IMG/VR virus record: IMGVR_UViG_3300045988_123629
Length of the DNA stretch: 64,000 nucleotides
Strand: one strand, 5' to 3'
Source of the DNA: a virus
The first letter of the stretch is position 1. Each line of letters starts with the position of its first letter. The notes below the pieces were generated by a model. It was not told the DNA's origin. It did no database searches and saw only the letters and a list, made by a program, of their open reading frames with translations. The translations under genes and the position numbers were made by a program. Positions 1,450 to 24,161 of the stretch are shown here, piece after piece.

Positions 1450-4035
1450 TTAAGCCTTTCCACCGTTAAGGATAAGTTCATCACCAGCAGTTTGAACTAA
1501 TTTATTAACATTTATATTATTAACAGTAGCTACACCAGTGTCAGAAACACTAATAGCATTTTCAGCATCAGAGCTGACAATTAAACCTGCGCGAGCTGCG
1601 GTAGCAAGAGGAATATTAACAGTCTTTTCGCTAATTGCGATTTCAGTACCATTAACTTGAATCTTTTCAATTACATTAGGCTGTGCAGCATCCCACTGGG
1701 CGATTTTCTCAGAAGTAATTCCTGCATAATCAGCTTTCTTTAATTCAGCGATTGCATCAGCATTAGCTTTTTCAGCAGTTTCAGCGCGAGTGGTCTCAGC
1801 AGCGATTGCATCAGCATTAGCTTTTTCAGCTGCTTTAGCACGAGTAGCTTCATCACTAATAGCAGTGGCATTGGTACCTTCAGCAGTTTTAGCACGAGTA
1901 GCTTCATCTTCGACTGCTTTCTTATTAGCCGCGATATCTTTAACCATTTGGTCTGCAGCAGAACCATGTGTGGTGATATAAGTTTGAATTTCCTTTAAAG
2001 TATCAACTGCGGCGTCGCCGACTTCTGCGGCTGCAAGGAAGGCATCAACACGAGATTTAACACCAGCAATAGCAGTAGCATTTGCTTGTTCTTTACCTTC
2101 TGCACGTGTTTGTTCAGCAGCAACGGCATCTTTAACAGTCTTAGCTACAGAGCCTTCAACAGTATCAATACCATTTAATTTAGCAATAGCATCTGTATTG
2201 GTCTTAATACTTGCTTTAACAACACTATCATCATAAGTAGCAGCCTTTTGAGCATCAGCAATCATCTGAACGATTGTCTTGTCTGCTGGAATGGTGCCAA
2301 CCTTATCACTTAATGTATTAACAGCAGTCTGAGCATCAGTGCCAGCCTTCTTTGCATCAGCAACAGCAGTATCAACCTCAGTCTTAACAGCATAGCCCTT
2401 AGCTTCGACTTGAGCCATAGTAGTCTTGGAAGTAGCAAGTTCATAAGCTTCTTTTACAGTACCAGTATGCCCTTCGCCAAGGATAGCGGTCTTAGCAGTA
2501 GCAACTTTAGTATCAGCATTAGTGCCAGCAGTTGTAATAGCTTCAGACTTAGCTGTAGCAATTGCACCACTTACACTATTAACATCAACTTTACCTTCAA
2601 GAGCAGCGACTTTCTTACCAATAGCAGAAGTATCACCAACTAAGCTGTCAGCATAAGCTTTAGCTGTTTTACCAACTTCATCCGCATAAATCTTTGCACC
2701 ATGGATAGTTTCACTATCTTTAGTGTCAACATCAGTCTGGCCATCTTCACCGCCAAGAGTATGACGTAAATTATCAACTGCGGTATTAACCGTGCTTACT
2801 GTAGCAGCTTTATTAGTACCAGCATTATATTCGCCATCAAAAGTTAAATTATTTTGTTTGCCATCAAGAGCATCCTGAAGACCATCAATTTTAGAAATAC
2901 CAAGAGTAGGAATATCGGAAACAGCAAGATTTTCGCCTTTAGTTACAAGACCTTTGGCATCATAAGTAATCTTTGTGGCAGTACCAGCAGTAATATCTTT
3001 GTTAGCAACAACAGCAGCATTAGCCGTCTTTTTCACAGCAGCAATAGCAGTTGTATTATCACTATCAGCCTTTTCAAGGGCTTTCATCTTAGTATCGTAA
3101 GCAGATTGATCAACAAAATTACCAGCATCTTGCTTTGCGTTCCACTTTTCAATATCTTCAGCAGTAATACCAGCGGCAGGAAGTTTTTCAACTACACTAA
3201 CACGTCCGGCAAGAGTAGTTAAATCAGCAGCCTTAGCATAATCCTCAATCTTAAGAGCCTTAATGGCGCCATCAATATAAGCCTTTACTTCAGGAGATTG
3301 ACCTTCAGCAGTGCCAAATCCTTTAAGAATAGCTTTTAATTTATTAATATCACCAGTTAAACCATTAACAATATCGGGATGGCTCGCGACCCAATCAACT
3401 AATTCTTTAAAGGTGTCAATAGTACCATTTTCAGTAGCTTTGGTAGCAAAATCGTTAATAGCATCATTAACAGCTTTAGTAACTGAACCTTCACCCGTAC
3501 CATTCAAAACACCAATAGCATCTTCATTAGTTTTAATACGTTTACGAAGACCAGCAGTATCATCAGCACCAACAACAGCTTCAAGGGCATCTACATCAGT
3601 CTATGCTGCAGCAGCTTTATCATCGGCAGTCTTAGCATCGGCAACGCCTTTATCTGCTTGCTTCTGGGCAGCTTCAATTAGAGCATATAAACCAGTAGCA
3701 ACAGTTTCGTCCTGAGTAGCAGAGCCAACTTTCTCAATAAGAGAAGCAACTTGGCCCTGAAGAGTAGAAACATCAGAAGCAAGATCGCCAGAAGCAGTGG
3801 TAGAAGCAAGTTTAACAAGAGTACCAGTCGCATTGCTAATCATATAAGCTTCGCATTTATTATCAGCAACTAAAGTTAAAATCTGACCAACATAGGCGGT
3901 AGCGCCAGATTTTGCATAAGTTTCGAGTTCTGCTTTATTATACCATACCGCAGTAGTATCAACAGGAGCAGGATTACCACGTTTAATAGAAAGTGGGAAA
4001 CCCATATAAGCAGCATCATTCATAATAACAGCCAT
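1450..4035 (-). CDS. Large fibrous structural protein rich in Ala/Thr/Lys, with coiled-coil-like repeats. It is read through one in-frame TAG at 3601-3603.
   Basis: ORFs 3601-4035 and 1450-3507 are in the same frame and separated only by a TAG. There is a GGAGG RBS 9 nt upstream of the ATG at 4035. The sequence has internal repeats (ATRAKTAEGTNATAISDEATRAKAAEKANADAIA...). The stop is TAA. Confidence 0.5.
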
Positions 4036-4058
4036 ATTATATATTTACCTCCTTCAAA

Positions 4059-5306
4059 TTAGCCGATGGTGACAGCATAAGTCTCGCCAGCATCAATAGA
4101 AGCAGGCTGATAAACATATACATCATATTTAGCCGCAGTATAACCATTAGCACCTTCAACATCAACTTGAGTGCCCTGTTTTACGAATAGAGCAGTAACA
4201 TCAGCATTGAGTGCGCTAGGCATAAGAACCTTAGTAATCTTGCGACCAGCAGGAACGGCAACAATAACTTTCTTCGCGCCAGCACCAGCACCAAAAGTAG
4301 TGAGAGCGCCAGTACCACTAGCCTGTTTATGCGCAAGGGCGCGAATATTGACAGAGTTTAGAGCCATATCAGCACTGGACATGGGACCCCAGAACATATA
4401 ACGGACACCAGTTAGAGTTTTGGAATTTGCAGTAGCACTACCAGCTTTAATCTTACCTTCAGGATAAGGATTACCAAGATTAGTCTTAGGAACCGCACCC
4501 TCATTATAGGTAGCCTTGGCGGTAATCTTTTTGGAAGTGGCCTCAGCAACAACATTCTCAAAAGAACCAGTTGCAGTGGACTTACTATCAGCAACACCAG
4601 TACAATTGACTTCCCAAGTTTGAGCAGTGATACCAGTAGCAGGACCATAGGTATAATTACCAGTAGACAGAGCTGCAGCATAAGTCAAATTTTTCTTAGT
4701 GCCAATTTCAAAAGTACCAAAACCGCCTTCGGCTGTAAAGGATACAGCAGGATTAGACTTAGAAGGATTGACCTCCTGAGCCATTAAAGAAGAGAGTACC
4801 TATTCAACATTCTTACCCTTAGCAGCAAATTTAGCAGAGCCAGAGGGCTGAGCAAGTGTACCAAAACCAACTGTGTAAGTAATATCTTCATCAAAATATA
4901 CATTATCAGCACGATAATTGCCATCAAAAGCGGCCCAATTAGCACCATCATAGAAATACGCAGTACGAGAAGTTTTACCCTCAACAAACGCATTCTCAAT
5001 AACAGCCATATCTCCCTGAACAGGAGTGGCAATTGTTGCCAGCATATCGGCATCAGTCTTATCTTCAGTTAGAGTTAAGACAGAAACTTTATCACGATTG
5101 CTATTAATAATAGATTTAATAGCATTCTCATCGACACCGGAGTAATTAAGTTCATTCCAAGCTTTAGTACCATCACCAATCTTAATTTTACCAGTGTCAA
5201 CTTCAATACCCATTTCACCTTTTAACAGCACAGGGTTTTTTTCAACCCAAGTGGCTGCTTCATCATTGCGGAGTTGAATACGGGTTTTTAAAGTATTTCC
5301 AGCCAT
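4059..5306 (-). CDS. Tail fibre-like protein. The conserved N-terminal fibre domain (4800-5306) is probably fused to the 4059-4784 segment by read-through of the in-frame TAG at 4800-4802.
   Basis: The N-terminus (MAGNTLKTRIQLRNDEAATW...GEMGIEVDTGKIKIGDGTKAWNELNY) carries the fibre motif. TAG at 4800 lies in frame with the ATG at 4782-4784, and there is no convincing RBS before that ATG. The final stop is TAA at 4059. Confidence 0.4.
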
Positions 5307-5452
5307 ATTAAAATTTCCTCCTTAATAAAAAAAAATTAAGCATTTCCGCCATCTATTAATGAATACTAAGAAGTTTTACCAATTTCAGTAATACTATTAT
5401 CTTCATTAACCAAATAGGGAGTCCATTGTTTATTCTAAAAAATTGAAATTAC

Positions 5453-5675: not shown

Positions 5676-6938
5676 TTATCCCTCCTTTATTATATTATAA
5701 TAATTATTTACTAATTTTTGTTTATATCCAGAAGCAATAAATTCTTCGGGAAGAGGTTTATTAAATTTTCCACCTTTAATAATAATTTCGGCATTATTTA
5801 TACTAGAAAGGATTTTATCACAAGTAGTTTCAAAAATTCCTCCATTAATAATTAAAATACCAGCATTAATATCATCATTATTCTTTTTACATTGGATAAC
5901 TTCATAACCATCATCAGTATAGAAATAACCATCATTTATAGTTAAACTTTTACCAACGTTATAAAGCATACCATAAAAATTACCACCATTAATTTCACAA
6001 ATACCAGCATCATCATTTTTAATAGTAGTATAAGCATTAATAAAAGTACCACCATTAATAATTAATTTAGGATATTCCGCGGACTCGCCTAAATGGTATT
6101 GAGAAAGATAATCGTAATATCCATTCTCAATCATACTAGATAACCCGCCCGGAGAGGAGAATATTCCATCATAAATAGACATTTCACCATGATTTACTAT
6201 TACATAATATCCATTACCTTTTTCATCAATAGAACGTTTATACTCACCATTTATAATAGTTGTATTTCCATTATTCTCAATAGATGCTTTACCATGTTTA
6301 TTACATTCAACGCATCCTTCTCCCGAAATAATTAAAGAAGCGTTATTATTAATTTTAACTGGATTGTCTTCATTATTTAAGATACTAATATTATTTAAAT
6401 CAATATTAATATTTTTTCCTTTTGGAATATCAATATTTTTAACTGTTTTCTACAAAATTATAGTATCATTATTAGAAGCATTTTGAATTGCTTCTTCAAT
6501 AGTAGAATATTTTGTTCCATTAATTTCTACTTCATCAGCAGGTAGTCCTTGGTCTTCACCTTTAATTTTTATAACTTCAACAGTTCCTTGAGAAGATTTA
6601 CCTTGTAATAATCTCCATTTTTCACCATCATAAATATAAAAATCTTCACCAACTAAGCACATTGTACCTTCTTTAGTATTTGGATCTTCAGGTAAAGATT
6701 CTTTCTATCCAATAAAATAAGCGACATCACTAAAATATTTATTTATTTCATTCTTTATCTCATTCTCTGCAAGATAAGGAAGATTATTCCATGTGCGAAT
6801 ACCATCGCCAATTTTTAATCTGCCAGTATCTATTTCAAAACCAGGTTCACCAGGTCCTAAGAGAACATTTTTCTCAGTCCAAGAAGCTGCTTTTCCGCGC
6901 TTAAAATAGAACTTTGATTTCATATAAACATCAGCCAA
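5676..6938 (-). CDS. Tail fibre protein with the conserved N-terminal fibre domain. It contains two in-frame TAG codons (6450-6452 and 6705-6707).
   Basis: ORFs 6705-6938, 6450-6662 and 5676-6182 are in one frame. I checked the stretch 6183-6449 triplet by triplet and found no TAA or TGA. The N-terminus (KNVLLGPGEPGFEIDTGRLKIGDGIRTWNNLPYL) carries the fibre motif. The start is TTG after a GGAGG RBS. The stop is TAA at 5676. Confidence 0.55.
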
Positions 6939-7329: not shown

Positions 7330-8823
7330 TTAATAATTGTTGTATGCGGTTAATAAAGTATCTAACTATGTTTTAAAACTAGCATCACCTGATGCTACTT
7401 TAATATTATTTCCTAAAGCAGTTGTTATAGCGTTAAACCAAACTACTAAACGTAGGGGATTAGTATCATTTATAGTAGTAATTGAACTGTTTAAATAAGT
7501 ATTTATATATCCTGCGAAAGTATTTGCTTCACTTCTGGAATAATCTTTCCAAGTAAACGCGGGCCACCAAACCGCGTAGTAAGTTATATTAGATGTACCA
7601 GTAGAAATTGAAGGTGTTGCTCCTTTTTTATAAGTTGCAGTTTTTGCCGAAGACGATGTAGACCATCCTTTAAAAATATAATTATTGCGAGTGGGATAAT
7701 TAGATCCATTTATATTGAAAGAAGAATTAGTGTTAACCGTCTATGATCCTGGACCGCCAGAACCGCCATTTGCATTATAAGTTACAGTAATTGTATTTCT
7801 ACGCCAAATGGCATAAAGAGTTTTATACACAGGACTTGTTGATGATACCTATAATTGCGTGCCAATATCAGCTGAAGAAGAACTAGTTCCCCAACCTAAG
7901 AAAGTATAATTTGCTTTTGTTGGAGTGTCTAAAGTAATAGTTCGACTAGAATTAACACTTGAATAGCTTACTTGCTATCCTTCACTATAACTACCAGATC
8001 CTCCGTTATAATGATAGGTTATATAAGTATAGTAATAAATACGCTACCACATAGCATATAATGTATAAGTTGAACCATTATATGCTTGCACAGGACTACT
8101 TACATAAGCTGATGAATTATCTGTTGTCCATCCTAAAAAATTATACCCAGAGAGTGAAGGTGTATCTAAATATATGTCCCAAGGCTGAGTTGTGCTTGAA
8201 AAAGTATATTGCTATCCATTATTATAACTACCAGATCCTCCATTATAATAATATGTTATATAAGCATAGGATAAATTTTGTCTATAAAAGAATATAACAT
8301 AACTACAATCTCCTACTATATAAGTGGAATCTTGACTCCATGTAGTACCATTACTAATATAATAATTTAAACATTCCTATTCTGAATTACCAGGACAATA
8401 TCCTAAATAAGTATAACTACTACCATAAGAAGGAGCAGTCATACCAAAGCTACCTTGCATCCAACCATTTATATAACTTCCAGTTGTGACATCATAGCAA
8501 GCATACAATGGATCGATGGAGCCTGATCCCCCACCTCCTCCACCACCGCCACTTGATCCTGGGGTAGTAAGAGTGCCATCCCAAATTCCTCCTGTATTCC
8601 ATTGGCCTCCAGTATAATACTATAACCAAACAGTATAATCATAAGTAGTTCCTGGGCTCAGCCCAAGGACATGTACCCAAGGTGTACCAGTAGTTGCATC
8701 ACCCCATACAGTATTTCCATTTATAGTTACTGCCATTTGTCTTTGAACATTATCAGAACTAAGATCCGTTGCTTCAAAAATAGCCCCAGTTTCACTAAGA
8801 CTGGATATGGTATAGCTAGCCAT
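7330..8823 (-). CDS. Repeat-containing structural or adhesin-like protein with a Gly/Ser-rich region and three Listeria-Bacteroides-type (flg_new-like) repeats. It has at least 7 in-frame TAG codons.
   Basis: The RBS is AAGGGGG before the ATG at 8821-8823. I translated 8823 down to about 7680 codon by codon and the frame stays open except for TAG at about 7 positions. It has a G(8) stretch and repeats of YxYNGGSGSY..G(TAG)Q...L.TP....Y.F.GW. The first TAA is at 7330-7332. A TAG at 7366 could alternatively be the real end. Confidence 0.55.
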
Positions 8824-9770: not shown

Positions 9771-10004
9771 TTTTTATTTGAGGGTTTTAATTAGGTTAAC
9801 CCACAACCTCCGATAGTGTGTCTACTGGACCAAGGAAATACCCGATCGCCGCATTTCGCTCTTTAAAAGATGGACGCTTCTAATCCTACTTCCTATCGTA
9901 TAAAAGGACTTATCAATGACTTTTATACATATTGCCTTTATTACCTTTATAAACAAATTAGCATTACCCAGTGCTACCGCGAGGAGGTTTTGTTTTTAGC
10001 ACCG

Positions 10005-10093
10005 CAGCCCCGCTGGGATTCGAACCCAGAACGACTCCTTCAAAGGGAAAACGGTTTTAGAGACCGCCGTGTTAACCATTACACTACGGGGCA
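10005..10093 (-). tRNA. Putative amber-suppressor tRNA (anticodon CTA, reads UAG). It has a long, class II-like variable arm of about 21 nt and discriminator G73.
   Basis: Manual fold of UGCCCCG-UA-GUGU-AAUGGUUA-ACAC-G-GCGGU-CUCUAAA-ACCGU-(21-nt arm)-CUGGG-UUCGAAU-CCCAG-CGGGGCU-G. The anticodon loop is CUCUAAA, giving anticodon CUA. Pair 1:72 is U.U. CCA is not encoded. Confidence 0.65.
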
Positions 10094-10357: not shown

Positions 10358-10555
10358 GGCACGGCCGGCTGGACTCGAACCAGCAGATGCAGGAGTCAGG
10401 GCTCAAAAGTTGGACTTGCACCAACATTCTCGGTTTTATAGGACCGGAAGCCTACTAACAGAACTTATATAATACTACTTAACCCCGTCATATTATATAA
10501 CCCATTTAACTGATTTTGAGAAAGTCCTGTGCCTTACCAATTTGGCGACGACCGT
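10358..10555 (-). tRNA. tRNA-Gln (anticodon TTG) gene interrupted by an insertion of about 125 nt in the anticodon loop. Either an intron-containing tRNA or a disrupted pseudogene.
   Basis: The 5' part (ACGGUCG-UC-GCCAAAUUGGUAAGGC-A-CAGGA-CUUU) and the 3' part (UGAC-UCCUG-CAUCU-GCUGG-UUCGAGU-CCAGC-CGGCCGU-G-CCA) together match the bacterial tRNA-Gln architecture. The acceptor halves are complementary. An insert of about 125 nt lies between anticodon-loop positions about 35 and 36. Confidence 0.5.
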
Positions 10556-10810
10556 ATAAAACAAGACACCAAAGAATTTCAATCAATTTATTTCATCTAT
10601 TTGTCGATTAATTCTCTCTTACCCCAAACAGACTACACCTTCGACAGGTAATCAAAAGTTATTGGTAAAACAATATCTCTGTTATCTTCTATTATAGAAA
10701 AGAAAATTCGCAGTTTGTGGTGTCTTTGATATATTTAAAACACGAACGCTGTGCTCAACCATTACACTAATTACAGCTGATTATTGGAATCGAACCAATC
10801 CTGCGTTCGG

Positions 10811-11295: not shown

Positions 11296-11458
11296 TGGTC
11301 CGAGTGGAGCGACTCAAACGCTCGGCCTCCTGAACCCTAGTGGCAACAATGAGATTCGAACTCATAACAGCTATTAACTGACCTCGGGAGCGACCCTCAG
11401 ACATTACCATTCTGTCATCTTGCCAAATCAGGCGTTCTATCAACTGAACTACACCCGG
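11296..11458 (-). tRNA. tRNA-Pro (anticodon TGG) gene interrupted by an insertion of about 90-105 nt in the anticodon loop. The insert itself has a tRNA-like T-arm and acceptor.
   Basis: The 5' part is CCGGGUG-UA-GUUC-AGUUGAUA-GAAC-G-CCUGA-UUU. The 3' part is GGGU-UCAGG-AGGCC-GAGCG-UUUGAGU-CGCUC-CACUCGG-A-CCA. The acceptors pair across 7 bp. The mature loop would be UUUGGGU (anticodon UGG). The insert contains ATGAG-TTCGAAT-CTCAT. Confidence 0.45.
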
Positions 11459-12083: not shown

Positions 12084-12941
12084 TTAAGTAGTTAAAAACG
12101 CATTATAACCTTTTGATTTTAAATCGTTAATTACTTTTATAGCATTTGCTTTGACAGAAAAAGCACCGACTTGAACTTTATAATACTTACCAATCTTACG
12201 AATATAAGCATTTTTATAACCTGCTCCAATAGTATCAGGTAATGCTTTAATTTTCAATAAGAAAGCATCAGCATTAGATTTAGATCCAAAAGCACCAAGT
12301 TGAACACGATAAATAATTTGTGGTTTGAGATAAATAGCCATTACATTATCGACTGCGCGATTGCCCCAATCTTTAGTGATACAAGTTCCATTATGAAGAA
12401 CTTTTGTGCTACCACCGCCATCAAGGTTAATTGCATAATCAACTTTTAATGCTAAAAGTAAATTCTACATTTCCGCGAATGCCATACCTGGCTTTTCAAT
12501 AGCGATTAAATAAATATTAAATTTATTATATGCTAATACTGTTCTACGGGCTTTATAATTTAACTCTTTAGCATAAGTAATTTGAGTTTTTTTACCAGCC
12601 TTAATTAATACTGGATAACCGCTAACAAAATCTTCAAACTTTTCTGTTCCAATTATACCGTATTTCAATTCACCATTAATGATACCAAAACCTTCTTTAT
12701 AAGAAGAAGTGGAATTAATGATTATACCATTGTCCATATAATTAAAACAAGTGCCACCATTATCCATGCTAAAGAAACCACCATTAGTTAAAATAGTAGG
12801 TTTAACCGCACAACTATCATAGTATTGCTTTAAAGTCTAACGCGGTTGAGCGCATAACGCCATATCTAACTTACTAATTTCTTCTTTTGGAATTTCAATA
12901 ATTTTTACATATGAATAATTACTTGGAGAATATATCTTCAT
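12084..12941 (-). CDS. Putative cell-wall hydrolase or lysin. It has a phosphodiester-glycosidase (NAGPA-like) domain followed by two C-terminal SPOR peptidoglycan-binding repeats. It contains two in-frame TAG codons.
   Basis: AAGGAAGG RBS followed by the ATG at 12939-12941. ORFs 12465-12767 and 12084-12341 are in the same frame, and I checked 12342-12464 triplet by triplet. Motifs: TNGGFF and INLDGGGST (NAGPA family), YRVQLGAFGSKSNA and YKVQVGAFSVKANA (SPOR). TAGs are at 12465-12467 and near 12840. Confidence 0.55.
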
Positions 12942-13005
12942 CAAATCACCTTCCTTAATATTTTTAAGGTTTCAATGATTCTTATTAATGAAATATACCC
13001 TCGAT

Positions 13006-13085
13006 TGGTACGGCTACTGGGACTTAAACCCAGATTATGACAGCTTAGAGGGCTGGTGCCATATTCAATTAGGCGATAGCCGTAA
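13006..13085 (-). tRNA. tRNA, probably Arg (anticodon TCT). It has an atypical C at position 33.
   Basis: Acceptor ACGGCUA/UAGCCGU, A73 and CCA. T-arm CUGGG-UUUAAGU-CCCAG. Anticodon arm CCAGC-CCUCUAA-GCUGU. Confidence 0.45.
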
Positions 13086-13279: not shown

Positions 13280-13876
13280 TTATATCTCTTCAGTCTTATT
13301 TTTAAATCTTTGACTATTTAGATACTTATAATTGGGAGTCAAAGAATGACAATTAGGGCACAATAATTCTAAATTATTCAAATCATTGTGAGTTCTATCG
13401 CCATCTTTATGATGAATCTCTAAAGGACATTTCCCAGTTGTTGGATTAATTTCTCCCCAACCACACTTCTAACATTTATTATTATATTTTTTGAAAAGAT
13501 AAGTTCTAATAGAATCAGAAATTTTAGTAGCATTTCCACTTTTCTTTAAACCACTTTCTTCTCCATTAGCAACTTTTTCAATATATTCTTTTCTTTTATA
13601 TTCCTACTAACAAGCATTAGAACAATATTTATACTATCCTTTATGTAATTCTTTACCGCAATTTAAACAATATTTTTCTTTAACTTTTCCTGTAGTATTA
13701 CAAATACATCCGCACGACTTTGTAGCTCCTCTTGTTAAATTGCCAGTTTTTATTTCTTTCTAATTTCCACAATCACATTGGCATAACCAATAAGTACTTC
13801 CATTACGACTTGGTGCTTTTTTAAGAGCAACTAATCTTCCAAATCTTTGACCAGTAATATCTAAAGCATTAGGCAT
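13280..13876 (-). CDS. HNH homing endonuclease with at least 5 in-frame TAG codons.
   Basis: AGGAGTG RBS followed by an ATG at 13874-13876. The stop is TAA at 13280-13282, and I checked that start and stop are in the same frame. Motifs: N-terminal ...YWLCQCDCGN(TAG)KEIKTGNLTRGATKSCGC and HNH core CPLEIHHKDGDRTHNDLNNLELLCPNCH. No ORF of 60 aa or more appears in the track because of the TAGs. Confidence 0.6.
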
Positions 13877-13972
13877 ATTTATATAACACTCCTTTTATTT
13901 TTCTTCTATTATATATAAATATACCTACTTTTAAACTAAGGGTTTAAGTCCAAAATTTTTCTAATAATTAAT

Positions 13973-14649: not shown

Positions 14650-14725
14650 TGGGGTGACTGGCGGAATTCGAATCCGCGACCTTCTGAGCCACAATCAGAC
14701 GCTCTACCAACTGAGCTACAGCCAC
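14650..14725 (-). tRNA. tRNA-His (anticodon GTG).
   Basis: Acceptor GUGGCUG/CAGUCAC and discriminator C73. Anticodon arm UCUGA-UUGUGGC-UCAGA. T-loop GGATTCGAATTCC. CCA is encoded. Confidence 0.7.
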
Positions 14726-14726
14726 A

Positions 14727-14813
14727 TGGTGCTTTTGGTGAGACTCGAACTCACATGAACTTTACGCCCACTAGATTCTTAGTCTAGCATGTATACCAAT
14801 TCCATCACAAAAG
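14727..14813 (-). tRNA. Class II tRNA, probably Leu (anticodon AAG).
   Basis: Acceptor GCUUUUG/CAAAAGC and A73. Anticodon arm CUAGA-CUAAGAA-UCUAG. Long variable arm. T-arm GUGAG-UUCGAGU-CUCAC. CCA is encoded. Confidence 0.5.
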
Positions 14814-14909
14814 CATTTTCTTATTTTCATATATTTATTATATAATATTTTTTTTATAAAGTCAAAAGGGGCCGATGTAAAGTATATTCACTTTACATCG
14901 GCCGTCGCG

Positions 14910-16049
14910 TTAATAAAGATACTGTTCAATAGTGTTTGCGACCTTAGTTAAAACAACAGACTTAATTACGCGCTCATTTTTAGCCTTTTCAATAGCTTCC
15001 TTACGCTTTTCAGCATCAGTAATCGTCCAAAAGTCATCAGGATCAATGTAAACTTCAACCTTTTTCGGATCAGCTGTAATCATACCCTTTTCAATCTTAA
15101 TCGAATCAGGAGTCAAGGCATAACGAATAGTCTTACTATCTGAGGCATAACCATCATACCATCTTTGATGATTGGTATTAGGATTGTTAAACAAATTAAC
15201 TGAAGCACCATAGGTATTATATACATCACCATTTACCGTAGTAATAGTGATATTGAAACGAACATTGGAAGTCTGAGAGATATTAAGGTCTTCAAGAGTT
15301 TCTGCCACACCATAACCCTGATTAAGTTCAAAAGCAATCGCTCGAAGATAATCATAAGTCATATTAACAGTGCGAGAAAAATTCACAATATCCTTAATAC
15401 CATCTGCGTATTTAGGCTTAACCTTATCAGTCAAATACTCAACGATCTCTTCCTCAGTTGGGAAAGTAATCTTAAAATGATAATGGAAACGACCAGGTCT
15501 ATTCAAAAGATAAGTGCTAAGTCGATCAACTTCATTACAAGTAATGACAAAAAGCTTCTTACCATTATCAAGACCATCAAAAAGAGAAAGCATTTCTTCC
15601 TGCGGAGAGGGGCCCGCATGGTCGTCAGAGTTATTAGAGAAATTCTTTTCAAACTCATCAAAAATAATTACGACTTCTTGCTCGATACTGGAAATAAAAT
15701 CTGCGATACCAGGCATATAAGTATTAGCCAAAAGGACAGGATATCCGTTTTCAATAGCGTGATGAGAAAGAATACGAGCAAACAATGACTTACCAATACC
15801 CTTCTGACCACTTAAAATAACACCAAGATTACGGTCTGAATACTTAAAAGAATTAAGCACCTTATTGACTTTAACTTCGTGATTACCATAAATTTTTTCC
15901 TCATTGACCGCAAGATCTGGACGAGAAGAAAGATAAAAACCTGCCATCTTACTAAAGCAGACTTCAAAAGACATAAGCGGAAGTCGCTTATAAGTCTTAA
16001 CGTCCTCGCCATAAATCTGATAGCGAGAACCAGCGTTTACAATATTCAT
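14910..16049 (-). CDS. AAA+ ATPase.
   Basis: Walker A GQKGIGKS, Walker B VIIFDEFE and the NRPGRFH sensor/arginine motif typical of classic AAA modules. A 379-aa continuous ORF. Confidence 0.65.
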   Translation of the reverse strand: MNIVNAGSRYQIYGEDVKTYKRLPLMSFEVCFSKMAGFYLSSRPDLAVNEEKIYGNHEVKVNKVLNSFKYSDRNLGVILSGQKGIGKSLFARILSHHAIENGYPVLLANTYMPGIADFISSIEQEVVIIFDEFEKNFSNNSDDHAGPSPQEEMLSLFDGLDNGKKLFVITCNEVDRLSTYLLNRPGRFHYHFKITFPTEEEIVEYLTDKVKPKYADGIKDIVNFSRTVNMTYDYLRAIAFELNQGYGVAETLEDLNISQTSNVRFNITITTVNGDVYNTYGASVNLFNNPNTNHQRWYDGYASDSKTIRYALTPDSIKIEKGMITADPKKVEVYIDPDDFWTITDAEKRKEAIEKAKNERVIKSVVLTKVANTIEQYLY

Positions 16050-17597: not shown

Positions 17598-18377
17598 TTA
17601 TATGTTTTTCCATTCATCATCAGTGTATAAATTTATAATTTTTTTTGTATTAGGTAAATTATAAGAAATACACCATTTTCTAATGGAATTATCACTTACA
17701 TGATATATATTCGCGATAGAAGTAAAACTTTTATTACGAATCAATTTTTTTAATTTATCACGAGAAGGTCTTTTAATTTTTCGATGTTCTTTAGCAGAAC
17801 ATTTCTAACATTTTTGACCTTTTCCGCTCCACTCTCCACCACATATAGGACAAACTTTTTTTAAAAGTTTTTTCTCTTCTTCTGGTTTATTTTTATCAAA
17901 ACGAGAATAATGTAAAGGATAATTTAATTTTTCATTAAACCAAGTTCTTCCAACATTTATATCTCTAATAGTATCTTTACTAACTTTATATTTTTTAGCT
18001 AATTCCGAATGATTAACTACACCTAACTTATCATTAATTAAAATATTTTGAATATCTTGGACTTCCTAATAATTTAATTTTTGATAAATTACGCGATAAT
18101 CTCCACCTATTGTCTAATTATACTCTGGTTTATAATAATCAATCCAATAAGTTTCTCTACTATTTAGATTATCAATTTCACATTCTTCTAACACTTCAAA
18201 TATAAAATTAGAAACACCATATTTTCTGAAACTTTGATATAAGGGATAATTATAGCTTTTACTCTTTTCATCTTGGGAGCTATATATATGATTTTCCCAA
18301 CGTTCTGCTATATTTCTTGACTATCCAATATAACAATGATTATTTATTTTATTAGTAATTTTATAAATTCCTATCAT
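17598..18377 (-). CDS. GIY-YIG homing endonuclease with about 5 in-frame TAG codons.
   Basis: AGGAGAT RBS followed by an ATG at 18375-18377. The stop is TAA at 17598-17600, in frame. Motif GIYKITNKINNHCYIG(TAG)SRNIAERWENH, which is GIY...YIG...R...H. There is a C-terminal Cys cluster (CPICGG...C(TAG)KC). Confidence 0.55.
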
Positions 18378-18460
18378 ATTACCATCTCCTTACACTATAA
18401 TTAAAATTTTATTTAAGATAATTATAATTTTTCGACCTCGAAAGTATTTAGGTGATGATA

Positions 18461-18534
18461 TGGTTGCGGTCGGGCGATTCGAACGCCGTTTTTGGCTTAT
18501 GAGGCCAACGAGCTACCTTTGCTCCACCACCGCA
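18461..18534 (-). tRNA. tRNA with anticodon CAT (elongator Met or Ile2 type).
   Basis: Anticodon arm UUGGC-CUCAUAA-GCCAA. D-arm GAGC-AAAGGUA-GCUC. T-loop TTCGAAT. CCA is encoded. Confidence 0.55.
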
Positions 18535-18535
18535 A

Positions 18536-18612
18536 TGGTCGGTCAAATTAGAATCGAACTAATATCCCTTGTCTTATGAGAACAATGCTCTACCAGTTAA
18601 GCTATTGACCGA
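18536..18612 (-). tRNA. Second tRNA with anticodon CAT (Met or Ile2 type).
   Basis: Acceptor CGGUCAA/UUGACCG. Anticodon arm UUGUU-CUCAUAA-GACAA. T-arm AUUAG-UUCGAUU-CUAAU. CCA is encoded. Confidence 0.6.
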
Positions 18613-18850
18613 AAATAGGATAGATATAATATTCATGACTATTATATCTATTGGACTTTCTAACCTATCGTCCCAAAATTCTTAATAGACCTCATCAAAT
18701 GGCCAACTTTTGTAGAGGCTTTTGTGCGACCACCTGCGCACTTACATAGACATAAGAATAATGCCAACATATGGCGACCCCGACGGGTGCCGACCCCGCT
18801 ATCTCCAGCGTGACAGGCTGGCGGCTCTGCTGACTGCCCCCAGGGCCATA

Positions 18851-21288: not shown

Positions 21289-21302
21289 GACCTTAACTTT
21301 GT

Positions 21303-21383
21303 CCGAAAAATGGATTTGAACCATTAACTTAATCTTGAAGGATTATGACCTAACCTTTAGTCTATTCTGGAAGTTATTTTTGC
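21303..21383 (-). tRNA. Irregular Glu-type tRNA with a non-canonical anticodon loop. The best fold gives a 6-nt loop CUUCAA, so the anticodon is ambiguous (UUC or UCA).
   Basis: Acceptor UCCAGAA/UUUCGGA with one mismatch. Glu-like D-arm GAC-UAAAGGUUAG-GUC. Perfect 5-bp stem UAAUC/GAUUA enclosing CUUCAA. T-arm AAUGG-UUCAAAU-CCAUU. It is the first gene after the promoter at about 21390-21440. Confidence 0.4.
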
Positions 21384-21463
21384 TGTAAAGGTCTTTCTTT
21401 ATTTTATAAATATATTATATATTATTTTTTTAAAAATGTCAAAAAAATTTTTAATTGGTTATC

Positions 21464-24161
21464 AATTTCCATGTTGTACTATCTGTTTTTACATATACTC
21501 TACTGTCAGGATGAGCCATATAATAAGTTAAATATACTGAACTATTTGCTGTACTATCACGATAAGGCTTAACATATATATAATAAGTAGTTCCAGCCGT
21601 AACTTTATAACAAATACCAAAATTAGCTCCAGTACCGCCATATTTTTTTGCATAATCATCATCGCTAGCTAAAATATTAGAAGAAGGCTATCCACTATCA
21701 TTAAGAGAAGTAATACTTGATGTTAAATAACCATAAGTGTCTATTGAAGAATTAGAATAAACAATAAAGTCCCCTGAAATAGTAGGAGTAAAAGAAAAAT
21801 ATCGACAAGTGCTTGGAGATAAAGTCCAAGAAGAGGTGTTCTATTTGTTATAAGTGGGAGCAGATATTGACACAGTAGAATAAGCCCAATTTGCTATAGA
21901 CTAAATAGTAATTCTTATATAGCCATTTCCACCATGACCTGTTTCAGATGACCCTGTTGGAGAAATAAATGAAGAATTACCTGCGATAGTTGATGCAGAA
22001 GTTAAATAATAGTTACTATTTAACAAACAACCAGAAGGATAATTAGAAGCAGTGGATGAGGTATATACATAACCAGAACCTCCGCCACCATGATATTTTG
22101 TTCCACCCTGCATATTAGAGAGTGAAACAATTCCACCATACCAGCCGCCTCCTCCAGCTCCATTTATATTATAAGAAGAACTGGATGAATATCCATTTCC
22201 TCCTACTCCAAAGCTATTTCCTGAAGTTTGTGTACTTAGACCTGGACTATTAGACCCTGCTACACTACTGGTGCCCCCACCGGCATCTCCGCTTTCTGTA
22301 TTAGATCCCCAAGAGGTAGCTCCGCCTCCGCCGGCGACAATTACACGAGCGTAGAGAGAGTTTGATCCAATACGAATATCAGAAGCTCCTCCACCACCAC
22401 CGCTTCGAGACATAGATCCGGAGACTCCTCCAGTACCGCCTCCATTAAATCCTCCTGTATAATCATTAGCAGAAGAAGAAATACAACCTCCTTTTCCACC
22501 AGTATATAAATATACCGTTTGAGAGGAAGAAAGAGTTAAAATTCCCGTTGAATATCCACCTTTTCCTCCTATAGCTCCCGAAGAAGCGTCAAAACTAGAG
22601 TTACTATTAGCACCATTTCCTCCCTAAGCCCCCCAACATTCTAATTTATAAGTACCTTTTGGAAGGGCAATATTTTTATAAGTTCCACTATAAGGACAAT
22701 TTAATATATCTCCTGTTTTTAAAGAAGAAGAAGAAGGAATTGAAGAAGTTAAGTCGTAAGTTGCCATGTAACGTCTCCTCCTTTCCAAGTTGTACTATCT
22801 GTTTTTATATATATAGCTTTAGTAGGAGCATAAGTATTAGAATTGATTTTTATATTTAAAGGAGATAATACTGTAATACGAATATATCCATTTTGCCCTC
22901 CAGGATTAGTTTTACTATAGCCTATCGTAGTAGAGGCATTTGTTAAATAATAATTATTGTTTAACAAACAGCCAGAAGGATAATTAGAAGCAGTTGATGA
23001 AGTATATACGTAGCCAGAGCCTCCCCCATTATAAGTTCTATAATCAGCAGAGCTATCACTAACATTAGTAGAAGCACCACCGCCATACCAGCCACCACCA
23101 CCACCACCGGGACCATAATTATAATTGGTAGATCCACTAGCATCAGCACCTTGACCAAAAGATCCATTTGTTCCTGCTTTAGTCTATGTAGCCTTATATT
23201 CTTCAACCGCAGAGTTACCCGTCAATCCGCCACCCTATTTAATAGAAGAATTACTTTCTCCCGCGCCACCACCACCACCACCGGCAACAATTACACGGGC
23301 ATAAAGAGAGTCTTGACCTACGCGGATATCGGAAGCTCCTCCGCCTCCTCCACCTGATGTGTAAGCAGAAGTATACCATCTAATCCTAGAGCTACCTCCT
23401 CCATTAAATCCACCATTAACTATCTTACCTTTTTCACTATCACTTGAATAACTACCATGCCCCCCGGTGTATAAATAAATAGTGGTAGGAACTGGTAAAG
23501 AAAGAATTCCTATAGAATATCCTCCTGTTCCACCCCAATAACTATTTTTTGAACTCGCAGGAGTATAAGTAGTATTACTTTCCTATTTCTAAATCTAAAA
23601 ATAAACTTCTTCATTATCCACGGAATTTGAGCTATCTTTAGTATAAGTCATTACGATAGTAGATCCTGATGATAAAGAATAAGTGCCAGTAGTAGTAAGA
23701 GAACTTGATCCAGAAACCGCATTTAAAACTGTATTTCCTCCAACAGTTAAAGTGACTTTATCATAGCTTGCTTCAGTTTTATAATAATATGAAAATTTAT
23801 AAGTCCCCCCAGAAGTACAAGTTAATGTAGTTGTAGCAGTACTTGAATCTATTCCTCCGTTAGTAGCTATCCAGTCATTTCCGTCTTGACGAAAATAATA
23901 ATTTGAATCATTAACAGTAAAATAACTGGTCGCATTATGAGTTCCTATATATATCCATGAAGTTGTTGTTGATGAAGTTAAAGAACCAGAATAACCAATT
24001 CCGCCATAGCCACCCCAACATTCTAATTGATAATTTCCCGCTGGAAGTTTTACTGGATTTACCGCTCCTGAATAGCTACTATTAATAATATCTCCTGGAA
24101 TAAATTTAATAGAAGAATAATCTGTTATAGAAGTTCCAGAAGGATTATAAGTATTTGGCAT
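21464..24161 (-). CDS. Large Gly/Ser/Thr-rich tail fibre or adhesin-like protein with many in-frame TAG codons. It may comprise one very large gene or two genes.
   Basis: GAGGAGG RBS before the ATG at 24159-24161. ORFs 23595-24161, 22749-22967 and 21901-22413 and the stretches between them are coding in register and interrupted only by TAG. For example, VYF(TAG)I(TAG)K(TAG)ESNTTY at 23583-23597 was verified by triplets. Repeats GGGGGA.DIR.G..SLYARVIVAGGGG are present. The end coordinate is approximate. Confidence 0.4.

Follow-up and report, generated by a model that had tools for sequence, protein, structure and literature searches.

In the virus record IMGVR_UViG_3300045988_123629 from IMG/VR, of which we analysed a stretch of 64,000 nucleotides (nt; referred to here as the window), the gene for tRNA-Gln(UUG) is split within its anticodon loop by an insert of 123 nt, which, judged by its pattern of covariation, is itself a tRNA derivative without decoding function. 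This arrangement suggests a hitherto undescribed type of intron, excised probably by the ordinary enzymes that trim tRNA ends. To our knowledge there are two routes by which tRNA introns are removed, self-splicing by group I ribozymes in bacteria and organelles, and cleavage by an endonuclease acting on a bulge-helix-bulge (BHB) motif followed by ligation in archaea and eukaryotes; because the insert fails the defining tests of both, it falls outside the two known intron families. No description of tRNA-shaped introns or of nested phage tRNAs was found in Rfam 15 or in the full-text literature, a coverage outside of which most subscription papers lie.

A tRNA-Gln gene split in the anticodon loop

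All features of the split gene are located on the minus strand. ARAGORN with the intron search switched on (-i) reports an interrupted tRNA at c[10357,10555], which is missed by ARAGORN with default settings and by Rfam. The 5' exon (10555-10521, 35 nt) covers tRNA positions 1-35, i.e. the 5' strand of the acceptor stem, the D-arm, the 5' strand of the anticodon stem and the loop nucleotides C32, U33, U34 and U35 (ACGGTCG, TC, GCCA..GGCA, C, AGGA.., ending CAGGA-CTTT). The insert, a putative intron (10520-10398), lies between U35 and G36, and the 3' exon (10397-10357, 41 nt) resumes with G36, A37 and C38 and the 3' strand of the anticodon stem (GAC-TCCTG), followed by the variable loop (CATCT), the T-arm (GCTGG-TTCGAGT-CCAGC), the 3' strand of the acceptor stem (CGGCCGT), G73 and an encoded CCA. 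Both exons are delimited by the ARAGORN intron search and by covariation of the exon stems. The junctions of the unspliced gene read GGACTTTCTCAAAA and TTGAGCCCTGACTCC, and the exon-exon junction predicted for the spliced tRNA is CAGGACTTTGACTCCTG. A preliminary description, made from the bare sequence, had recognized a tRNA-Gln(UUG) with the loop CUUUGAC that is interrupted between positions 35 and 36, and this observation is confirmed in both respects; it had also placed the locus correctly, with boundaries off by 1-3 nt and an insert taken to be about 125 nt long. Beyond that description, the ends of the insert pair as an acceptor-like stem, the insert belongs to a conserved family, and another nested tRNA is located at a distance of 750 nt.

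When the gene is spliced in silico at 35/36, the product is called tRNA-Gln(ttg) by ARAGORN, and the same call is obtained for the spliced products of every nested Gln locus with intact exons; no call results for L101 (loci and contigs other than the window are designated L plus a number). In Phage Phass-1 an uninterrupted, annotated tRNA-Gln aligns with the spliced product in one piece across the junction (identity 91.7%, coverage 95% of the length), and most of the further annotated matches listed for this product are tRNA-Gln genes as well. Separate genes for Glu(UUC) and Glu(CUC) are found by ARAGORN elsewhere in the window, and no second tRNA-Gln gene was detected in the window or in the otherwise near-complete tRNA arrays of its relatives. 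The call of the spliced product, the collinear match to Phass-1 and the presence of separate Glu genes without another Gln gene thus identify the gene as Gln(UUG) split at 35/36. The label given by ARAGORN itself, Glu(UUC) with the junction at 36/37, is an artefact of how the program places junctions: tRNA-Gln and the tRNA body share 92% identity, both Glu genes are present elsewhere, and the first C of the insert, which this placement would move into the exon, is paired in the inner stem.

Alleles lacking the insert, which the preliminary description had proposed to look for, exist in L104 and in Phass-1, and both carry exactly the predicted loop CTTTGAC. In an alignment of 12 nested and 3 intact tRNA-Gln sequences the four exon stems are 99.7% paired, with compensatory changes in 14 of 20 pairs; three of these pairs belong to the anticodon stem, the strands of which flank the insert. 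The loop nucleotides CTTT and GAC are unchanged in the nested copies, which comprise at least six exon variants. Since the exon stems covary, the split gene appears to be functional, and we regard functional constraint on the exons, in the form of tRNA-type selection, as solid on this comparative evidence.

The insert has the architecture of a tRNA

The first seven bases of the insert, CTCAAAA (10514-10520), pair with TTTTGAG near its end (10402-10408) to form an acceptor-like stem, after which the insert ends with CCCT (10398-10401), a tail resembling a discriminator base plus CCA. Enclosed by this stem are an elongated D-arm (10449-10511, with a D-stem at 10508-10511/10449-10452 and a 10-bp hairpin at 10491-10500/10465-10474), an anticodon-like hairpin (10430-10447) with a 4-bp stem and a loop of 7-10 nt, and a T-arm of the sequence GTTGG TGCAAGT CCAAC (10409-10425), which adjoins the acceptor-like stem in the same way as a T-arm does in a tRNA. 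The acceptor, D, anticodon and T stems are therefore present in cloverleaf order. Hairpins within the insert had been noticed before, and both of those named, the 10-bp hairpin and the T-arm, are part of this fold.

Support for this structure comes from 29 distinct insert sequences. Across the five helices (in insert numbering, acceptor 1-7/113-119, D-stem 10-13/69-72, D-arm hairpin 21-30/47-56, anticodon-like stem 74-77/88-91 and T-stem 96-100/108-112) 99.0% of the cells in the alignment are paired and 21 of 30 pairs show compensatory changes. The acceptor-like stem is paired in every sequence, with double changes in six of its seven pairs, and four of the five pairs of the T-stem are compensatory around an invariant loop UGCAAGU. 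None of 500 shuffles reached this level of pairing, and sliding the partners by 1-3 columns reduced it to about 40%. RNAalifold recovers the same five helices de novo, and when ordinary tRNAs of 74-78 nt are aligned to a covariance model built from the insert, the alignments extend over the whole model and score 25-43 bits. The folding energy of the insert and of the whole locus is no better than that of shuffled sequences (z about -0.9), so the case for the structure rests on covariation and not on energy.

Relative to a canonical tRNA the D-arm carries about 55 extra nt, and its segments TTAAATGGGTT, GGGTTAAGTAG and AAGTTCTGTTAGTAGG, altogether about 55 nt, are nearly invariant. The T-arm is found also in ordinary phage tRNAs. 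As the loop of the anticodon-like hairpin varies in both length and sequence, this hairpin is non-decoding; the insert is not matched by the tRNA model RF00005 at E<=10 and lacks the anticodon loop of canonical decoding tRNAs (7 nt with U33 and a conserved anticodon). Based on these comparisons the insert is best described as a non-decoding tRNA derivative. We regard its architecture and its membership in a conserved family as solid.

Other known classes of RNA were searched for at the locus. Rfam 15 reported no group I or group II intron, self-cleaving ribozyme, tRNA, tmRNA or Y RNA between 10250 and 10650 at E<=10, and the group I core (RF00028) was absent from the whole window at gathering threshold; a tmRNA was called neither by ARAGORN nor by Rfam. 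A miniature inverted-repeat transposable element (MITE) was rejected because the terminal 'repeat' contains G-U pairs on this strand only and covaries as RNA, and because a consistent target duplication is lacking.

RNAs of a similar kind were noted in unrelated phage contigs, where tRNA-like RNAs of 120-135 nt combine the same T-arm (GGTGCAAGTCC) with large insertions in the D-arm or the anticodon region (L064, 13144-13268, plus strand; L042, 7643-7773 and 8094-8227, minus strand; L020, 960-1084, minus strand; L062, 1165-1287, plus strand). The RNA of L064 is a distant free-standing relative of the 123-nt element (42 bits).

Nested and free-standing copies of the element

Pattern scans identified 59 further loci with the 123-nt element, 17 in IMG/VR, 41 in metagenomes and one in a metagenome-assembled genome labelled 'Mollicutes'. 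On these 59 independent contigs the element is nested as in the window in 54 cases and free-standing in four; one copy is cut by the end of the locus. The split arrangement is thus not due to chance, as it recurs on 54 of 59 contigs, the spliced product is called as Gln, and the match to Phass-1 is collinear. The insertion at 35/36 is found in at least six clearly different tRNA-Gln genes (the window type, L060, L102/L115, L079/L085 and relatives, L092, and the L078 type), and in L106 the element is nested in a tRNA-Lys(UUU) at 36/37, where it begins with GTCAGAT after ACGCA CTTTT and ends with ATCTGAC CCCA before AA TGCGT. In a blastn search against 50,697 GenBank phage records the element had no match.

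Nested copies encode a CCA-like tail, in most cases NCC(A/T) (CCCT, CCCA, TCCA, GCCA, TCCT; also CTCT, and TTTT in L101), which is absent from the free-standing copies in L084, L123, L100 and L104, whose tails are A+U-rich. In L104 the free-standing element lies 11 nt upstream of the intact tRNA-Gln mentioned above.

Three of these loci deserve separate mention. The 3' exon of the nested tRNA-Gln in L101 (approximately 4410-4607, minus strand) has accumulated numerous changes of the types G>A and C>T, and the tail is TTTT, whereas its 121-nt element is intact and scores 134 bits against the covariance model, which looks like a decaying outer tRNA around an element still under selection. Between the window and L060, the 20 nt upstream of the split gene (CTTTGGTGTCTTGTTTTAT, 10556-10575 of the window, minus strand) and about 40 nt downstream of it are nearly identical; there are about 25 differences in the tRNA-Gln exons and about 13 in the intron, and it seems that the exons have either been exchanged or evolve more rapidly than the sequence around them. 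The 14.7-kb contig L096 (OGLI01001458.1) carries a nested tRNA-Gln element plus open reading frames (ORFs) that by eye resemble SusC/SusD-type outer-membrane proteins of Bacteroidota, and may represent a prophage or host junction or an assembly chimera.

Other nested tRNAs share the same terminal architecture

A tRNA-Pro(UGG) gene at 11296-11458 (minus strand; ARAGORN -i) is split at 34/35 by an insert of 87 nt (11338-11424) that is unrelated to the 123-nt element. It begins with GGCAAGA, ends with TGTTGCC plus ACTA, has a 7-nt terminal stem with six of seven positions paired and an aberrant anticodon region of 31 nt, and is matched by the Rfam tRNA model with 35.1 bits. The orthologous tRNA-Pro with the same flanks is uninterrupted in 11 relatives, so the insert represents a clean, recent insertion (TTT^GGGT); it is shared by L094. 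An 18-mer scan of IMG/VR for relatives of the insert gave only two chance matches in coding DNA.

In related loci further tRNAs are split by inserts of 47-92 nt: Ile(UAU) in L084 (32/33) and L089 (36/37), Leu(CAA) in L085 and L119 (34/35), Gly(UCC) in L101 (35/36) and L119 (36/37), Glu(UUC) in L126 (36/37), and Lys(UUU) in L100 and L117/L126 (34/35). Those inserts that were folded are mini-tRNAs with a D-like hairpin and a T-arm, and even inserts of 57-65 nt, which are too small for ribozymes, share the terminal architecture. For the majority of the independent combinations of tRNA and insert that were parsed, deleting the fold closed by the 7-bp stem together with its tail restores an exact 7-nt loop and a canonical anticodon, and in the cases checked ARAGORN then names the expected isotype. 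The tail is NCCA-like in nine tRNA/insert combinations (TCCA four times, ACCA, CCCA, ACAA and ACTA/ACTG among them) and consists of a single nucleotide in the CCA-less inserts in Lys of L117/L126 and Leu of L119. The homologous Leu introns illustrate the rule: the one in L085 has the tail TCCA, the one in L119 a single A, and the loop CUCAAAA is restored in either case. In total, the Gln element and 9-11 further inserts show the sequence features of an RNase P/RNase Z substrate, namely a 7-bp acceptor stem coaxial with a T-arm, an unpaired NCCA or discriminator at the 3' end, and junctions at +1 and behind position 76 (or 73). Nested tRNAs are a general feature of this phage group.

Intron calls by ARAGORN in the unrelated phage loci L005, L013, L042 and L071 break the rule of stem plus tail and leave non-canonical loops; probably they represent either false calls or insertions of a different type. 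In L005 (IMGVR_UViG_3300015606_001334, 359 kb) six such calls with inserts of 38-82 nt fall within one tRNA array of a huge phage (766-10413, minus strand).

A possible excision pathway and its alternatives

The junctions coincide with two sites of ordinary tRNA maturation, the RNase P site (position +1 of the insert) and the site of tRNA 3'-end formation (the end of the CCA or the discriminator). RNase P would cut at the base with which the inner acceptor stem begins, the putative 5' splice site, and leave a 3'-OH on the 5' exon; a 3'-end endonuclease of the RNase Z/BN type would cut immediately behind the CCA-like tail (behind the discriminator where an insert lacks CCA), at the putative 3' splice site, and leave a 5'-phosphate on the 3' exon. 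Held together by the acceptor and anticodon stems, the exon halves would then be sealed at the anticodon-loop nick by an ATP-dependent RNA ligase of the Rnl1 type, and the freed insert would be a mature tRNA-like RNA, probably with a function of its own. RNase BN/Z of Escherichia coli and RNase Z of Thermotoga cut after CCA if it is present and otherwise after the discriminator, and a nick with 3'-OH and 5'-phosphate ends in an anticodon loop is the natural substrate of T4 Rnl1. In these phages CCA is encoded by 83% of all tRNA genes, and their transcripts should therefore be cut at CCA ends as a matter of routine. Because the cut sites are fixed to the insert and the loop position floats from 32/33 to 36/37, the geometry of the outer tRNA is apparently not the recognition signal.

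Genes that could supply the last step are present in related phages. The 34-kb contig L100 contains a free-standing element, a nested tRNA-Lys and, 8 kb away, a ligase of the T4 Rnl1 family (PF09511, E 1.4e-13, full profile), which is directly preceded by a gene with similarity to polynucleotide kinases (AAA_33, plus a weak HD domain); the cassette occupies 2080-3516 and 3565-4557 on the minus strand, and the 479-amino-acid (aa) ligase ORF is probably a protein of 360 aa plus read-through of an upstream ORF. The combination of Rnl1 and AAA_33 recurs in 13 related contigs of 70-120 kb (L132-L144; in the L132 type a weak HD domain is present in addition). Beside tRNAs, Rnl1 and a kinase occur also in the large gut phages L152 (10001-12000) and L154 (10001-12033), which we rejected as relatives, as these are different phages without nucleotide similarity and with a DUF2828 protein that is 37% identical. 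L092, which carries a nested Gln, has a metallophosphatase and an AAA_33-like kinase beside its tRNA array.

Removal of the intron by tRNA end-maturation enzymes and joining of the exons by an Rnl1-type ligase is the reading that we favour and consider well motivated, but in our view it is about evenly balanced between right and wrong. Somewhat more tentatively, we propose that tRNA-shaped, CCA-tailed RNAs constitute a new class of mobile introns in phage tRNAs, which would enter anticodon loops at differing sites, be excised by RNase P and a 3' endonuclease that take them for tRNAs, and leave a nick resealed by Rnl1, in a third, RNase P-dependent pathway among bacteria and their phages. The 123-nt member of this class would at the same time be a conserved non-coding RNA with a function of its own, set free as tRNA-Gln matures.

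Several points weigh against this pathway. Splicing itself, as well as the identity of each of the three enzymes, is inferred from sequence. The examined parts of the window plus 10 kb on each side, out of a genome of approximately 193-197 kb, yielded neither an RNA ligase nor RtcB nor a polynucleotide kinase (tblastn with the L100 ligase, the kinase and the L092 genes; three repair-gene queries covered all frames of the window, and Pfam 20 of its ORFs). A profile scan of IMG/VR gave 257 Rnl1-like loci, and no contig of the window type is among the best 80 of them. Marker genes, including YonD_N and YonG_N genes beyond the high end of the window, suggest an SPbeta-like phage of Firmicutes, and since RNase Z of the Bacillus type is inhibited by CCA, a 3' cut after CCA would have no obvious host enzyme. 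The kinase beside Rnl1 may point to the repair of 5'-OH ends, a type of end that neither RNase P nor RNase Z generates. In addition, some inserts deviate from the rule: the Gly insert of L119 has a 3-nt tail (ACA), the Pro insert of L115/L102 is 49 nt long, not tRNA-like and has a 2-nt tail, and the case at 13512-13643 of L100 would leave C33.

The hint given by the kinase leads to an alternative in which proteins alone cut, heal and seal the RNA. An endoribonuclease of phage or host, other than RNase P or RNase Z, would recognize the tRNA-like insert, cleave at both junctions and leave a 2',3'-cyclic phosphate and a 5'-OH, which would be healed by a kinase/phosphatase and joined by Rnl1, or joined directly by RtcB, much as T4 repairs tRNAs cleaved by an anticodon nuclease. 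The Rnl1-family ligase is indeed always paired with an AAA_33 kinase where we observed it (L100, L132-L144, L152 and L154), and the phosphatase and kinase genes of L092 adjoin the tRNA array. However, no candidate for the endonuclease came to light, the junctions are exactly those of RNase P and RNase Z/BN, and cassettes of kinase and ligase, which many tRNA-rich phages carry for repair in response to host defence, need not concern splicing. We therefore consider this alternative unlikely.

It is a good deal more doubtful that no splicing occurs and that a mobile or duplicated tRNA-like gene resides in the loop of a dead or dying tRNA-Gln, only the inner RNA, set free by RNase P and 3' processing, being functional. 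The four free-standing copies, the degenerate 3' exon around the intact element in L101, and the recent and polymorphic insertion in tRNA-Pro fit such a view. It does not account for the covariation of the exon stems over at least six variants with invariant loop nucleotides, for the fact that the lengths of insert and tail restore a 7-nt loop and the right anticodon in most combinations, or for the position of the split gene as the sole tRNA-Gln of near-complete arrays.

We assign a very low probability to a self-splicing or self-processing RNA, either a miniature relative of group I introns or a new ribozyme with the invariant D-arm segments as its core. The intron is more strongly conserved than the exons, and some 55 nearly invariant nt have no obvious reason. 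Against this stand the lack of any match to group I introns or self-cleaving ribozymes in Rfam at E<=10, the length of only 123 nt, a covariation-supported fold that is a cloverleaf no more stable than shuffled sequence, splice positions that range over the loop, and unrelated inserts of 47-70 nt that share the end architecture without the invariant segments; as many of the inserts are small, the argument for the proposed mechanism excludes a ribozyme. Group I introns follow an end rule, a U at the end of the 5' exon paired to G and a terminal G of the intron, but the insert ends with T or A in all nested members, and the 5' exons of other nested tRNAs end in C. The earlier judgement that the insert is too small and of the wrong kind for a group I intron thus holds.

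An archaeal- or eukaryal-type BHB intron cut by a splicing endonuclease can practically be dismissed: the location in the anticodon loop would agree with it, and non-canonical positions are known among archaeal tRNA introns, but the junction consists of the 5-bp anticodon stem, an internal loop of 4 and 7 nt and the 7-bp inner stem, without two 3-nt bulges around a 4-bp helix, and the context is that of a bacterial phage (SPOR/NAGPA, SPbeta-like genes, a bacterial-type tRNA-Gln). Neither of the two comparisons that the preliminary description had named, with group I/II introns in Rfam and with the BHB motif, thus yielded a match.

As to the origin of the inserts, nothing more would be needed than that an entire gene of the tRNA type was captured as DNA, because the boundaries of the inserts are the ends of mature tRNAs and 83% of the tRNA genes encode CCA. 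This is speculative, as is the alternative that a mature tRNA-like RNA was ligated into a nicked loop and then copied back; the phage carries Mtd_N proteins, which are targets of diversity-generating retroelements (DGR).

Other features of the window and its relatives

Two Mtd_N paralogues of 415-420 aa and the YonD_N/YonG_N genes mentioned above were noted at 4059-5321 and 5676-6938 of the window (minus strand) and at 4443-7307 of L145; the Mtd_N proteins imply a reverse transcriptase in this phage of approximately 193-197 kb. A suppressor tRNA(CUA) of 90 nt with a long variable arm, labelled 'Pyl' by ARAGORN, is located at 10004-10093 (minus strand), and versions of 72-75 nt occur at the same place in relatives. 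The structural-looking ORFs at 7330-8823, 21451-22818 and 22749-24161 (minus strand) contain 5-8 in-frame TAG codons, which suggests recoding of TAG in part of the genome.

Within the tRNA array of the window there are free-standing genes for homing endonucleases of the HNH (13280-13894, minus strand) and GIY-YIG types (17598-18389, minus strand), an AAA ATPase (14910-16049) and a protein with NAGPA and SPOR domains (12084-12971). In two phage lineages the tRNA array ends with a DUF2828/DUF7788 (vWA-type) protein (L080, 1033-2560, minus strand; L152, 458-1984, plus strand; 37% identity). The tRNA pairs His/Leu (14650-14814, minus strand) and Met/Met (18461-18611, minus strand) are only 1 nt apart, so that RNase P, by cutting at the downstream tRNA, would almost generate the CCA end of its upstream neighbour. 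A few tRNA calls are unusual or weakly supported (21301-21371, 13006-13083 and 18772-18847, all minus strand); they comprise a 'tRNA-???' with a 2-base anticodon (Rfam tRNA, 44 bits), an Arg(UCU) found by Rfam and relaxed ARAGORN only, and an extra tRNA-Asp(GUC) found at the relaxed threshold only.

Comparison with known systems and implications

Like the group I introns of bacterial tRNAs (cyanobacterial tRNA-Leu(UAA), Azoarcus tRNA-Ile, tRNAs of Patescibacteria), the insert lies in the anticodon loop, is patchily distributed and interrupts exons that are functional. Unlike these introns, which have a P1-P9 core, about 200 nt or more and a terminal G, it is short, varies in its position within the loop and forms a cloverleaf with a CCA-like tail. 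With BHB introns, including the intron of archaeal pre-tRNA-Trp that encodes a C/D box RNA, it would share protein-dependent excision, a possibly functional product and exon halves held together by the tRNA body; it differs in lacking the BHB motif, in that the apparent recognition element is the intron's own tRNA shape, and in its occurrence in a bacterial phage.

Excision of a tRNA-shaped module by RNase P and RNase Z is well known from the mascRNA of MALAT1, from MEN-beta, from tRNA punctuation in mitochondria and from engineered tRNA-flanked guide arrays. In contrast to those modules, whose flanks are not rejoined, the flanks are here the halves of another tRNA and would have to be ligated. 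Sealing of an anticodon loop is also the task of the repair system of phage T4, in which Pnkp and Rnl1 counter PrrC, and Rnl1 plus a kinase are present in a related phage with nested tRNAs. In T4, however, the damage is inflicted by the host, whereas the break proposed here would be a programmed step of maturation, and for phages of the window type a ligase was not found in the regions searched. The free-standing copies of the 123-nt element resemble the T4 species 1 and 2 RNAs (rnaC/rnaD) and the YrlA type of bacterial Y RNAs, stable non-decoding RNAs with tRNA-like ends or modules whose genes lie among those of tRNAs and which are matured by tRNA enzymes; they differ in having no sequence or Rfam similarity to them, and we know of no rnaC/rnaD or YrlA RNA located inside another tRNA.

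Nested tRNAs are readily misnamed by ARAGORN, which reports Gln as Glu(UUC), Leu as Phe(aaa), Gly as Arg(tcg) and Glu as SeC(tca). Standard annotation thus misses or misnames them, and tRNA inventories and genetic code predictions of recoded gut phages are incomplete in consequence. If the proposed pathway is correct, these phages would represent a third solution to the problem of tRNA introns, in which housekeeping maturation enzymes and an RNA-repair ligase take over splicing and the signal is likeness to a tRNA with a CCA end. This would tie the repair of tRNAs, part of the anti-defence repertoire of phages, to gene expression, and would show how easily introns can be born where processing and ligation activities coexist.

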